Source of the DNA: a virus
Taxonomy: Duplodnaviria; Heunggongvirae; Uroviricota; Caudoviricetes
Strand: one strand, 5' to 3'
IMG/VR virus record: IMGVR_UViG_2740892369_000044
Length of the DNA stretch: 38,716 nucleotides
Each line of letters starts with the position of its first letter. The stretch's first letter is position 1. The notes under the pieces were generated by a model. That model had not been told where the DNA came from and did no database searches. It worked only from the letters and a program-made list of their open reading frames with translations. The translations under genes and the position numbers were made by a program. Of this stretch, positions 15,407 to 34,983 are shown piece by piece.

Positions 15407-15613
15407 ATGTGCATGGGTAGTTCACCATCAGTGCCTGCAACACCAGAAGTTCAGGCAGCACCACAGGAGCAGGATGCCGCCGTTATTGATGCCCGCGACG
15501 AAGAAACTCGTCGCCGTCGCGCTGCTGCTGGTCGTAATTCTACGCTGCTTACCGGTTCTCAGGGCGACACATCAACCGCTAATACCAGCGGTAAAACGCT
15601 GCTTGGTCAGTAA
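15407..15613 (+). CDS. Hypothetical small protein, first gene of the head operon
   Basis: 68-aa ORF with GGAG ribosome-binding site; low-complexity sequence. Confidence 0.4.
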   Translation: MCMGSSPSVPATPEVQAAPQEQDAAVIDARDEETRRRRAAAGRNSTLLTGSQGDTSTANTSGKTLLGQ

Positions 15614-15627
15614 CCGGAGTCATTGAA

Positions 15628-32297: not shown

Positions 32298-32361
32298 TTT
32301 CAGGTAATAGAATAACCGGATATGCGGCGCAACGGGTGCTGCGACTATCTGGAGATTTAAC

Positions 32362-34983
32362 ATGACGGTCTCAACCGAAGTTGACCACAACGAATACACC
32401 GGTAACGGTGTTACAACGACATTCCATTATACCTTCAGGATTTTTAAGAAGTCTGATCTGGTAGTCCAGGTTGTAGACCTGAACGATAACATCACTGTTC
32501 TGACGCTAGATACTGACTACACAGTAACCGGCGCAGGTGGGTATGTAGGTGGTAATGTAATACTGGCAACAGCTCTTGCTAATGGTTACCAGATTTCCAT
32601 ATCACGTGAATTGCCGGTTACGCAGGAAACGGATCTCCGTAACCAGGGTAAGTTCTTTGCTGAGGTGCATGAGGATGCGCTTGATAAGTTGACAATGTTG
32701 ATTCAGCAGGTTCGTAGTTGGTTTAGCCTGGCGCTACGTAAGCCGTCATTTGCTGCTAACTATTACGACGCAATGGACAACTATATTCGTAATCTTCGTG
32801 CCCCATCCAGGCCGAAAGACGCAGCAACGAAAGATTATGTTGATATTCTTTCTGGTGCCAGCCTAAGCAGAAGCTTGAGAGTACCTGAATCGTTTATAAA
32901 TGAGTTACCTGATGCGGATGGGAGAAAGAATAAAACACTGAGTTTTGATAATTCTGGATCACCGCTTCTTCTTGATCCTGAAAGTAGTGGGTTATGGGGA
33001 TATTCCCTTATTGATTCGTTTCAGGATGGTGCTTCAATAACAACTAGATTTCAGGCACTTCACTGGAAACGTCCTGATGGAAATGGCGAGTACTACCGTT
33101 GGGATGGATCTTTACCAAAAGATGTTCCTGAGAATTCAACCCCTGAATCAACAGGTGGGGTTTCCCTTGGTGCCTGGGTATCTGTAGGGGATGCATCGTT
33201 GCGGAGCGACCTGATTAGTCAAGAGACAGATAAAGGCTCCTCAATAGTTACATATACCCCTAAATTTAATGATGCCGTCTCGATGTCGGTATATGAAAAA
33301 CTTTCTGTAGATTTGGTGACACTTTCAGACTACGGATTTAAAGTTGGCAACACCGGTTCTCAGAACAAAGCGGCGTTTCAGAAGGCTATTGATGATGCTA
33401 CGTTGCCAACTGAGATTGTTATACCAGAGGGGGTGTTCATTGTTGACCCTGGTATTACGATTAAGAATACTGTCACCATGATACGAGGTGCTGGCGCATA
33501 TCAGTCCAGAATTTTCTCTACGGGTACAGCGGCACCGATAATCACGCAACAAGATGGAGTAATTACGTTCTGCGAGTTCAGGGACTTTGGTCTTGACGGA
33601 AATGGCTACGCAGCTAACGGCATCAGTCTTACTGAAGCCAACCACATTAAAATAGAAAATATTGACGTGGTTAATACTAATAACAACGCAATATTAGTTA
33701 ACGGTTACTCCATTGACATCATTGGGTGCCGATTGTTTCAAAACACCGGTAACGGTATTAATGTTGGTGGCCACTGCAATAATATTAATATAATCAACAA
33801 CCGTATCTATGGTAACGGAGCCGGTGGAGTTTTACTTACGCCAGCTTACGCTGAGGGCGGTATGAGCGTCAGAGTTAATGGCAACGATATAGAGCAAAAT
33901 AAGTTCTACGGACTTTTGGCTTACGGGGTTAAAGGCCTTAACCTTGATGCTAACTATTGGGAACGCAACGGTGAGATTGGTTACCCGTATAGTGTACCTG
34001 AGTCTATTACAGTACGTGCGGATATCCACCTTATCGCGAACAATTTTACATTAATTCCTGACCTTTCAAAAATTAATGATACCGTATCTATTCGCGGGAA
34101 TCAGCAGACCGCGATTGGCTACGCCAGCGCGCTACCTAACCAAGACGGATTTATTTTCACGAACTATGCGAAAAACCTGACGATTGAAAATAATCAGTTA
34201 TTAGACGCATCGAAAGTGAATAATTTATTAGCAATGTACCACAATAATCTTTCGTCCAAAGTTACTGACAGGCTATATCTTGCCAACAACACAGTGAACT
34301 CCATCGGATACGTTGGTAGTTATGACCCGGCGACACAAAACCCTGACACTGCGCATTTAATAGATATTGCGAACAGAGAGTTAACTGCTAACTATCTTGA
34401 TCGAAATATGTTGCTCTGGACTGCTGCATCTGGAACTACAGGAACATTGATAAAAACTCAAAACATCTATGCTGGTAATTATTCATTCTTAGTTACGACA
34501 GGAGATAGAGTTTGGGGACGAACGATAGACCTCAACAAATCACCAGAACTAAAAGGGAAATTTGTATGGTTTGGTGCGTGGGTCAATGACCAGGGATCAG
34601 CGTCAAAACTTATGTTTATAATTAATGGTGCAGGACAAACAGACTCTACAGCACCTTTAGCTGGTAATGGGAAATGGAGCTATGTTAGTTGTGGTGTGTA
34701 TATATACGAAACTGATACAGCTATAAATGTTGGTATAAGAAATTATGGTTCAGGAAATGTACTCATAAACTCACCGTCTCTTTGTGTATATGGAATGCCA
34801 TCAAATGCGTTACAAGTTGAAAAAACAACATTTTATCTTTCGTCAGTACCTACATCCGGTTTCTGGGATATAGGCGAACGCGTTATCAATAGCGCACCTG
34901 CTTCAGGACAACCAAAGGCATGGACATGCAATATTCCAGGTGGTCCCGGTGTTTGCAGTTTCCTTTCTGAGGGGAATTATTAA
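32362..34983 (+). CDS. Tailspike/tail fibre: T7 gp17-like N-terminal anchoring domain fused to a right-handed beta-helix (depolymerase-like) body
   Basis: 873 aa; N-terminus FHYTFRIFKKSDLVVQVV...ITVLTLDTDYTV parallels T7 gp17 FEYLARKFVVVTLIG...KVLTINTDYRF; repeated N/G/I-rich beta-helix rungs (NAILVNGYSIDIIGCRLFQNTGNGINVGGHCNNINIINNRIYGNG). Confidence 0.8.
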   Translation: MTVSTEVDHNEYTGNGVTTTFHYTFRIFKKSDLVVQVVDLNDNITVLTLDTDYTVTGAGGYVGGNVILATALANGYQISISRELPVTQETDLRNQGKFFAEVHEDALDKLTMLIQQVRSWFSLALRKPSFAANYYDAMDNYIRNLRAPSRPKDAATKDYVDILSGASLSRSLRVPESFINELPDADGRKNKTLSFDNSGSPLLLDPESSGLWGYSLIDSFQDGASITTRFQALHWKRPDGNGEYYRWDGSLPKDVPENSTPESTGGVSLGAWVSVGDASLRSDLISQETDKGSSIVTYTPKFNDAVSMSVYEKLSVDLVTLSDYGFKVGNTGSQNKAAFQKAIDDATLPTEIVIPEGVFIVDPGITIKNTVTMIRGAGAYQSRIFSTGTAAPIITQQDGVITFCEFRDFGLDGNGYAANGISLTEANHIKIENIDVVNTNNNAILVNGYSIDIIGCRLFQNTGNGINVGGHCNNINIINNRIYGNGAGGVLLTPAYAEGGMSVRVNGNDIEQNKFYGLLAYGVKGLNLDANYWERNGEIGYPYSVPESITVRADIHLIANNFTLIPDLSKINDTVSIRGNQQTAIGYASALPNQDGFIFTNYAKNLTIENNQLLDASKVNNLLAMYHNNLSSKVTDRLYLANNTVNSIGYVGSYDPATQNPDTAHLIDIANRELTANYLDRNMLLWTAASGTTGTLIKTQNIYAGNYSFLVTTGDRVWGRTIDLNKSPELKGKFVWFGAWVNDQGSASKLMFIINGAGQTDSTAPLAGNGKWSYVSCGVYIYETDTAINVGIRNYGSGNVLINSPSLCVYGMPSNALQVEKTTFYLSSVPTSGFWDIGERVINSAPASGQPKAWTCNIPGGPGVCSFLSEGNY

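Follow-up and report, generated by a model that had tools for sequence, protein, structure and literature searches.

We analyzed a 38,716-nucleotide stretch of tailed-phage DNA (IMG/VR record IMGVR_UViG_2740892369_000044; hereafter, "the window") and concentrated on positions 15407-34983, in which an earlier note, made from the letters alone, had described a T7-like set of virion genes joined to a lambdoid temperate genome. We conclude with high confidence that this region is the virion morphogenesis block of a temperate short-tailed phage of the phiV10/epsilon15 type, carried as a prophage beside guaA, and that its likeness to T7 is ancient. The coordinates and gene list given in the note proved accurate against an open reading frame (ORF) map and family scans, and the T7 morphogenesis order it reported is true for the portal and for the counterparts of gp11, gp12, gp13, gp14 and the gp17 N-terminus (Pfam, Foldseek, hhalign). 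The T7 kinship of this phage group has already been published, and there is nothing new in the finding.

Nucleotide comparison places the element in the Uetakevirus type. When 15407-34983 was searched by megablast against 50,697 phage records, ten records reached a coverage of at least 80%. Identity was 97-98% for phiv142-3, HEMP4, phiV10, the O157 typing phages 9 and 10, PAS61 and ZX5, and 81% for Enterobacter phage Tyrion; Salmonella phage epsilon15 followed at about 75%, with 43% of the region covered. For phiV10, PAS61, phiv142-3 and HEMP4, the sequence that aligns at 97-98% identity makes up 82-87% of the structural module; in the left arm its share is 57-81%, and against PAS61 the left arm (1-15400) is 97.6% identical at 81% coverage. 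The records of phiV10, PAS61 and epsilon15 are classified in the genus Uetakevirus. The International Committee on Taxonomy of Viruses sets the genus boundary at about 70% or more nucleotide identity, genome-wide. The element lies on the Uetakevirus side of that boundary, and homologues of epsilon15 gp1 to gp17, the gp7 capsid protein and gp10 staple among them, follow one another collinearly in it, as does one of the N-terminal part of gp20. With known Uetakeviruses at 97-98% nucleotide identity by megablast, the element is a standard member of that genus and not an unusual hybrid.

Among complete E. coli genomes, positions 1-37553 are 100% identical to a prophage of E. coli 97-3250 that lies immediately downstream of guaA (NZ_CP027599.1, 2282-43001) and is followed in tandem by a second identical copy, starting with an identical integrase. 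The prophage unit of that strain measures 37,743 bp, of which ~190 bp upstream of int are missing from the window, and the last 1,163 bp of the window (37554-38716) are non-prophage DNA holding a DUF5384 gene and a glycine-zipper/TraT-like gene. The host setting is a Shiga-toxin-type E. coli, with the prophage beside guaA. The tail block at 20508-24593 was found in 537 of 5,426 complete E. coli genomes, with an identity of at least 95% in 527 of the 540 matching records. Relatives of the nozzle protein are encoded in at least 485 IMG/VR stretches, the best 80 of them 98-100% identical to the nozzle here. The element is a very common and already named prophage type.

The gene map of the module, drawn from the ORF map and from Pfam and PHROG family scans, runs from the first base of a 68-amino-acid (aa) ORF like epsilon15 gp3 (15407) to the stop of an 873-aa tailspike ORF (34983):

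15407-15613, plus strand: 68-aa protein, epsilon15 gp3 homologue, function unknown (PHROG 831, E 1.3e-35; phiV10p06 is annotated as similar to epsilon15p03)
15628-17307, plus strand: portal, 559 aa, T7 gp8 family (PF12236 Head-tail_con, E 1.8e-187)
17304-17600, plus strand: Bbp19-like small protein, 98 aa (PF25181 Phage_Bbp19, E 2.8e-17)
17597-18298, plus strand: 233-aa protein in the scaffold position (PHROG 458 'protease', 3.5e-111)
18307-19299, plus strand: major capsid protein, 330 aa, BPP-1/epsilon15-type HK97-like fold (PF20911 GP7, 3.5e-148)
19351-19788, plus strand: Bbp16-family capsid cement, 145 aa (PF21190 Bbp16, 5.9e-49; named 'Bbp16 family capsid cement protein' by the Prokaryotic Genome Annotation Pipeline, PGAP)
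19790-20134, plus strand: 111-114 aa protein, epsilon15 gp9 homologue, function unknown (PHROG 590, 3.9e-61; phiV10p12 annotation)
20179-20508, plus strand: capsid staple/decoration protein, epsilon15 gp10 homologue (PF21628 Gp10-like, 3.3e-51; PGAP 'gp10: capsid staple protein')
20508-21113, plus strand: tail adaptor, 201 aa, equivalent of T7 gp11 (tail tubular protein A) by AlphaFold2 (AF2) model and Foldseek
21113-23584, plus strand: tail nozzle, 823 aa, equivalent of T7 gp12 (tail tubular protein B) by PDB 8ck1_A and hhalign
23581-24048, plus strand: 155-aa protein in the position of T7 gp13, or internal virion protein (IVP) A (PHROG 308 'internal virion protein', 1.2e-62)
24048-24593, plus strand: internal core/ejection protein, 181 aa, T7 gp14 family (PF24072 T7_gp14)
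24593-27106, plus strand: 837-aa internal/ejection protein, epsilon15 gp15 homologue (PHROG 992, 1044 and 7182; PDB matches)
27103-28905, plus strand: 600-aa internal virion protein, epsilon15 gp16 homologue (PHROG 1145; position; phiV10p19 annotation)
28911-31385, plus strand: 824-aa internal virion protein, epsilon15 gp17 homologue (PHROG 684 'virion structural protein')
31581-32184, both strands: two small divergent ORFs, of 98 aa (plus) and 85-91 aa (minus, epsilon15 gp19-like) (PHROG 3075, PHROG 450)
32362-34983, plus strand: tailspike, 873 aa (PF18668, PF13229; N-terminal fold match)

NCBIfam holds no family for ten of the structural proteins. PGAP calls the adaptor, the nozzle, the gp13-like protein and the three large internal proteins all 'hypothetical protein' despite solved homologues (8CK1, 9EFK). 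Between the core genes and the tailspike, phiV10 has an extra Bro-N antirepressor gene that is absent here.

To place the module relative to T7, 18 window proteins or families were set against 15 T7 ones (gp6.7-gp19). No pair gave a significant match by BLASTP or phmmer, and the T7 question was therefore taken to folds and profiles. The 18 x 15 hhalign matrix has its four highest scores at portal with gp8 (97%, 493 columns), the 155-aa protein with gp13 (84%), nozzle with gp12 (79%) and the tailspike N-terminus with that of gp17 (16%). All four pairs are syntenic and the remaining cells are at or below 11%; since the top scores fall only at syntenic pairs, the collinearity is not chance. Six homologous genes stand in the same order and orientation as in T7, which is well beyond chance. 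The hhalign profiles were of low diversity and missed adaptor-gp11, the 181-aa protein with gp14, the 824-aa protein with gp16, and all terminase pairs and head pairs other than the portal. The portal, a member of the T7 gp8 family, also matches the solved portal of Carin-1 (PDB 8ck0_A) at 1.4e-178.

The adaptor is linked to gp11 by its predicted fold. Its AF2 model has a predicted local distance difference test (pLDDT) score of 87.3 and in Foldseek finds the Carin-1 connector (8ck1_E, TM 0.83), the adaptors of LME-1 (9efk) and PhiM1, and the tail tubular protein A of KP32 (5mu4). T7 gp11 itself (7box_N) is matched at E 4.3e-6 with prob 1.0 and TMq 0.60, against E 0.69 and prob 0.35 for P22 gp4. 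At the level of sequence, phmmer matches the adaptor to 8ck1_E at 4e-26, and the epsilon15 RefSeq record notes an HHpred match between its gp11 and the tail tubular protein A of T7.

The nozzle matches 8ck1_A ('Tail Nozzle') at 2e-215 and 9efk_M (LME-1 orf18) at 7e-15. A 25-sequence nozzle profile searched against the PDB found 23sh_T ('nozzle gp13') at 3e-6 and did not reach T7 gp12 itself; the link to T7 comes from hhalign (79%), in which nozzle residues 322-439 align to residues 351-466 of the gp12 family. The aligned stretch falls inside the central domain (T7 gp12 354-556) of Hardies et al. 2016 (PMC4819975). The arrangement that marks the 'transient tail' group is present, with a gp12-like nozzle central domain followed by syntenic genes for IVP-A and IVP-B. 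The listed nozzle homologues were at least 81% identical throughout and the T7 gp12 scan held 19 close T7 relatives; profile diversity was taken from a representative-library search, in which the nozzle family numbers 18,208 cluster representatives at E<=0.001.

The tailspike is predicted to consist of an N-terminal attachment domain with the fold of the T7 gp17 N-terminus, then Tail_spike_N, then a right-handed beta-helix. In the AF2 model of residues 1-160, a beta-sandwich at 9-85 (pLDDT ~90) is the only confident part. Foldseek matched this model to the N-terminus of the Carin-1 tailspike (8ck1_B) at 1.2e-10 and to that of T7 gp17 (7ey9_a, 7ey9_b and 7boz_a) at E 4e-5 to 9e-5 with prob 1.0, the alignment to 7ey9_b covering 84 columns at 2.8 Å; fibres of Kp9, Kp7 and PhiM1 are matched as well. 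PF03906, the T7 tail-fibre N-terminal domain, is recorded on homologues 61-64% identical to the tailspike N-terminus, and the tailspike itself is sub-threshold for it (E 0.74, Pfam at E<=10). What had been called a tail fibre with a gp17-like N-terminus keeps the N-terminal fold; its receptor-binding part is that of a beta-helix tailspike, not of a fibre.

Two smaller proteins complete the collinear set. The 155-aa protein, aligned to the gp13 family above, is sub-threshold for PF11090 T7_Gp13 (E 0.089, Pfam at E<=10), and the RefSeq note on epsilon15 gp13 gives an HHpred match to GNAT acetyltransferase. The 181-aa protein passes the curated cut-off of PF24072 T7_gp14 (31.2 bits against 27; E 2.5e-7), and PGAP names its gene 'virion core protein, T7 gp14 family'.

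The head shell has another affinity. In the PDB, the major capsid protein (MCP) matches those of BPP-1 (3j4u_A, 3.2e-127), Carin-1 (8cjz_Y, 3.1e-87) and epsilon15 (gp7, 3j40_A, 7.1e-85); T7 gp10 was not matched in that search, and hhalign to gp10A gave 0%. More generally, the T7-type capsid (gp10), scaffold (gp9) and terminase (gp18/gp19) were not matched, all four pairs scoring 0-1% in hhalign. The profile or structural comparison that the earlier note recommended supports T7 kinship for the portal, gp11 and gp12 candidates and gives BPP-1/epsilon15 instead for the capsid, so that its T7-like virion module stands for portal, tail and core and falls for the shell.

How old the kinship is follows from its distance. 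Because no pairwise match is significant and the structural alignments to T7 (adaptor, tailspike N-terminus) run at 12-22% identity, we conclude that podovirus portal, tail and ejection genes descend from an ancient shared ancestor and that the resemblance stems from this, not from a recent swap. The module exchange between lytic podovirus and lambdoid lineages that the note had envisaged is not supported as a recent event, and the same combination is found in several genera. We consider it very improbable that the phage is a recent recombinant, in which a lambdoid temperate phage has newly captured a lytic T7-like (Autographiviridae) structural cassette. Neither the pairwise searches nor the low structural identity fit such a capture; no counterpart in T7 is detectable for capsid, scaffold or terminase; and the same layout of temperate region plus module exists in the distant genera of BPP-1 (Rauchvirus) and BcepC6B (Ryyoungvirus) and in LME-1. 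A gene order following T7 gp8, gp11, gp12, gp13, gp14 and the gp17 N-terminus, together with a temperate early region that includes a lambda P homologue, is what the capture would produce, but the distant identity and the conservation of the architecture across genera largely refute it.

Autographiviridae carry all genes on one strand and a T7-type replication module. Equivalents of gp8, gp11, gp12, gp14 and the gp17 N-terminus are present here, with those of gp15/gp16 known from the literature only, but early genes at ~1260-6154 lie on the minus strand and replication is of the DnaT-like plus lambda P kind. As the earlier note had stated, a phage RNA polymerase is absent: the T7 enzyme gave a best E of 1.5 by tblastn against the window and nothing at E<=1 by phmmer against six-frame ORFs, and the longest ORF outside the structural block is <=491 aa.

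The temperate backbone and the terminase lie to the left of the module:

1-8503, both strands: temperate early region with tyrosine integrase, NinI-like phosphatase, MT-A70 methylase, RecT, PD-(D/E)XK nuclease, helix-turn-helix (HTH) repressor, DnaT-like initiator and lambda P homologue (Pfam; PAS61 and PGAP annotations)
11719-12393, plus strand: terminase small subunit, TerS (PF03592 Terminase_2, 1.4e-29)
12390-13865, plus strand: terminase large subunit, TerL (PHROG 5902, PHROG 2)

The HTH_3 repressor gene (5570-6154, minus strand) faces a divergent 76-aa ORF on the plus strand, and the lambda P homologue matches PF06992 Phage_lambda_P at 1.7e-56; a repressor with a divergent small ORF, together with O/P-type replication genes, makes the early region lambdoid. 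TerL has no Pfam match, hence none to Terminase_GpA, and scores 1% against T7 gp19 in hhalign; HHpred notes in the epsilon15 RefSeq record point from TerL to Sf6 gp2 and from TerS to SF6. By these family matches the terminase is neither of the T7 type nor of the lambda Nu1/A type. Of the lambda-like backbone put forward in the earlier note, the integrase, repressor, DnaT-like initiator and lambda P stand, and the terminase (Terminase_2, Sf6 gp2-related) does not.

A P22-like module (P22, Sf6 and HK620 are the classic lambdoid podoviruses) would share with this one a temperate podovirus lifestyle, a lambdoid early region, a beta-helix tailspike and a pac-type terminase (a Terminase_2 TerS, and an epsilon15 TerL noted as like Sf6 gp2), and Swanson 2022 clusters the epsilon15 gp14-like and gp16-like proteins with P22 (PMC8954989). 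We nonetheless reject it as highly unlikely. By Pfam, the portal is of the T7 gp8 family; the adaptor model prefers T7 gp11 (E 4e-6) to P22 gp4; a P22-type tail needle gene appears in no family scan; the capsid is of the BPP-1/epsilon15 type; and nucleotide searches return Uetakevirus records, not P22-like ones. Least credible of all is that structural genes of a siphovirus or myovirus have been mistaken for podoviral ones. The epsilon15 terminase and capsid 'map with the siphoviruses' (Hardies 2016, PMC4819975), and one PHROG tape-measure family matches the 837-aa protein, but only across its muralytic domain (aa 193-421). The Pfam and PHROG scans assigned no ORF to a family of tail tube, tape measure, sheath or baseplate proteins, and for the adaptor, the nozzle and the N-terminus of the tailspike the solved tails that match are those of podoviruses. 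The clustering with siphovirus or myovirus homologues that the earlier note had named as its refutation did not appear.

Next to the capsid lies the 233-aa gene, which the earlier note took for a scaffold between portal and capsid. Its position and composition make this plausible; the role is unproven, and RefSeq phage records and PGAP, which places the gene start at 17603, label the product protease or peptidase. No protease family matches it in Pfam, NCBIfam or the PDB, even at permissive thresholds. The N-terminal ~90 aa form an acidic, proline-rich spacer, the remainder is helical-looking by eye and conserved in BPP-1, and the weak Pfam matches are only to helical or coiled-coil families. 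The gene sits between those of the portal and a capsid protein without a long N-terminal extension. From these features the product is more likely a scaffolding protein, and the protease/peptidase label is probably an error passed on from record to record. Nothing relevant came from a search of the literature for a scaffold of epsilon15 or a role for its gp6.

The capsid protein scores nearer to BPP-1 (3j4u_A, 427 bits) than to epsilon15, the type phage of the genus (3j40_A, 288 bits), which suggests mosaicism inside the Uetakevirus head module. Going further, we offer tentatively, as a possibility somewhat short of an even chance, that the module may be a standing chimera, with an ancient T7-supergroup set of portal, tail and ejection genes and a separate (siphovirus-like) head shell and pac terminase, in which the 'protease/peptidase' would be a protease-free scaffold and head assembly would be T7/P22-like, without proteolytic maturation. 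If this is true, thousands of prophage genes are misannotated, and a common O26 prophage would be a handy system for studying head/tail module compatibility across different descent.

The large internal proteins are less alike to T7. The 837-aa protein has a predicted cell-wall-degrading domain at ~aa 249-398: these residues match Gp29 of phage E1004 (9vvp_L, 1295 aa) at 5.4e-38, the protein also matches an 'Endolysin' (7q47_A) at 2.8e-17, its PHROG families (992, 1044, 7182) are labelled 'tail injection transglycosylase', and the RefSeq note on epsilon15 gp15 records an HHpred match to lytic transglycosylase. The 600-aa protein has no T7 match by pairwise search or by hhalign against T7 families. 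Hardies 2016 listed epsilon15 gp15/gp16 as IVP-C candidates by position only and placed gp17 in an extended IVP-D (T7 gp16) family by joined hidden Markov model (HMM) matching (PMC4819975); for the 824-aa protein we did not reproduce the link to T7 gp16, with hhalign at 1% and no PDB match.

Homology with solved relatives, from which we take both the oligomeric states and the order of assembly, suggests that the virion could be built as follows. A dodecameric portal of the T7 gp8 family would nucleate a capsid of BPP-1/epsilon15-type HK97-like coat protein, aided by the 233-aa scaffold-like protein, and the shell would be reinforced by the Bbp16-type cement and the gp10-type staple. The pac-type terminase encoded upstream would fill the head, after which a 12-mer adaptor (the gp11 equivalent) and a 6-mer nozzle (the gp12 equivalent) would close the portal. 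Six trimeric beta-helix tailspikes, held by their gp17-like N-terminal domain, would dock where adaptor and nozzle meet. An internal core would be packaged from the gp14-like protein and the three large ones, of which one has the cell-wall-degrading domain, and on ejection these proteins would form a trans-envelope channel for DNA entry; the gp13-like protein is encoded in the same gene block as these core proteins.

Several points weigh against our reading of the block. The adaptor-gp11 pair comes from a fold search and the 181-aa-gp14 pair from Pfam, and hhalign, with its low-diversity profiles, missed both. All public records name the 233-aa gene protease or peptidase, and we infer the scaffold role. 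The ejection role of the 600-aa and 824-aa proteins is drawn from position and literature, the hhalign and PDB tests having returned no T7 match. Finally, the prophage, known here from its genes alone, may be non-inducible.

The distal part of the tailspike sets this phage apart from its near relatives. From ~nucleotide 32845 (~aa 160) the gene diverges from phiV10, the N-terminal anchor being common to both, and the remainder (32845-34983) has no near match in the 50,697 phage records. No more than 32 complete E. coli genomes cover at least 80% of the block 31400-35620; all eight of those listed show 100% identity, and one is named O26. On the sequence evidence, the tailspike is a modular receptor-binding swap, and its specificity may be for O26. 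Downstream, 35022-35515 on the minus strand holds an intact gtrA (GtrA family flippase) followed by ~100 nucleotides of gtrB, marked by PGAP as an incomplete glycosyltransferase, which looks like a decayed O-antigen glucosylation cassette abutting the tailspike gene.

Other features of the window lie between the early region and the portal. The stretch from terL to the portal operon (13862-15400) carries a minus-strand ORF of 272-296 aa (PHROG 4780, no Pfam match) and a tRNA-Arg(UCU) on the minus strand at 14903-14979; phiV10 and PAS61 have shorter, different genes there, and the version seen here is ~98% identical in several IMG/VR loci. A 112-aa ORF at 11340-11678 matches PHROG 536 'transcriptional regulator'. 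PGAP annotates a frameshifted hypothetical gene at 10018-10196, within the ead/Ea22-like early region, and the ORF list has 9985-10533 in another frame.

As a discovery the element has small value: its genus is named, virion structures are solved, and the kinship with T7 tail and ejection genes was in print by 2016 at the latest. Its practical use comes down to three things: the adaptor, the nozzle and four core genes that public annotation calls 'hypothetical protein' could be given better names; the tail block is carried by ~10% of complete E. coli genomes; and phage typing or receptor studies could draw on this tailspike allele, which occurs in 32 genomes only, an O26 strain among them.

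The closest known phages are those of the phiV10 group (PAS61, phiv142-3, HEMP4, TL-2011b), which have in common with the window the gene order from terS to the tailspike N-terminus, the integrase, and the recombination and P-type replication genes. The tailspike from ~aa 160 and the O-antigen-modification locus differ, phiV10 having an O-acetyltransferase downstream of the tailspike where gtrA and a truncated gtrB stand here; the moron region between terL and portal also differs, here with the tRNA-Arg(UCU). Epsilon15, the type phage of Uetakevirus (cryo-EM, PDB 3J40), has its gp3-gp17 and the N-terminus of its gp20 matched one to one, and in unchanged order, by homologues in the window, and differs in its tailspike and serotype-conversion genes. 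The closest solved structures are those of Carin-1, a phage of Cobetia marina (8CJZ/8CK0/8CK1), and LME-1, a Legionella element/phage (9EFK). Carin-1 matches the portal (1.4e-178), adaptor (4e-26), nozzle (2e-215), tailspike N-terminus (7e-23) and MCP (3e-87); for LME-1 there are weaker sequence matches to the adaptor and nozzle and a fold match to the tailspike N-terminus. Identity is ~32-54% to Carin-1 and <20% to LME-1, and hosts and receptor-binding domains differ.

T7 has homologues, in the same order, of the portal, gp11, the gp12 central domain, gp13, gp14 and the fibre N-terminal anchor, and probably of the internal ejection core. The capsid here is of another sequence family, however, the Bbp16-type cement and gp10-type staple have no T7 counterpart, and the terminase lies upstream and is of an unrelated type. 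There are three large internal proteins here and two in T7; the muralytic domain is in the first large protein here and in gp16 in T7; a beta-helix tailspike replaces the fibre, and genes lie on both strands.

BPP-1 (Rauchvirus) and BcepC6B (Ryyoungvirus), both temperate, share the order portal, Bbp19/20, Bbp18, MCP, Bbp16, adaptor, nozzle and internal proteins without nucleotide similarity to the window. BPP-1 supplies the closest solved capsid protein, and differs in its diversity-generating retroelement, its Mtd tail fibres and internal proteins of other sizes (Bbp10 ~2,050 aa). Hardies et al. 2016 grouped epsilon15, BPP-1, BcepC6B and VP5 with T7 as a 'transient tail homology group' (PMC4819975), and the Swanson 2022 review described for epsilon15 a core stack like that of T7 and gp14/15/16-like genes in matching synteny (PMC8954989). 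The 2025 paper on LME-1 likewise found a tail complex closely like that of T7, with the shared genes in T7 order apart from one exception. The combination of a temperate backbone with this module recurs in epsilon15, BPP-1, BcepC6B (with integrase) and LME-1.

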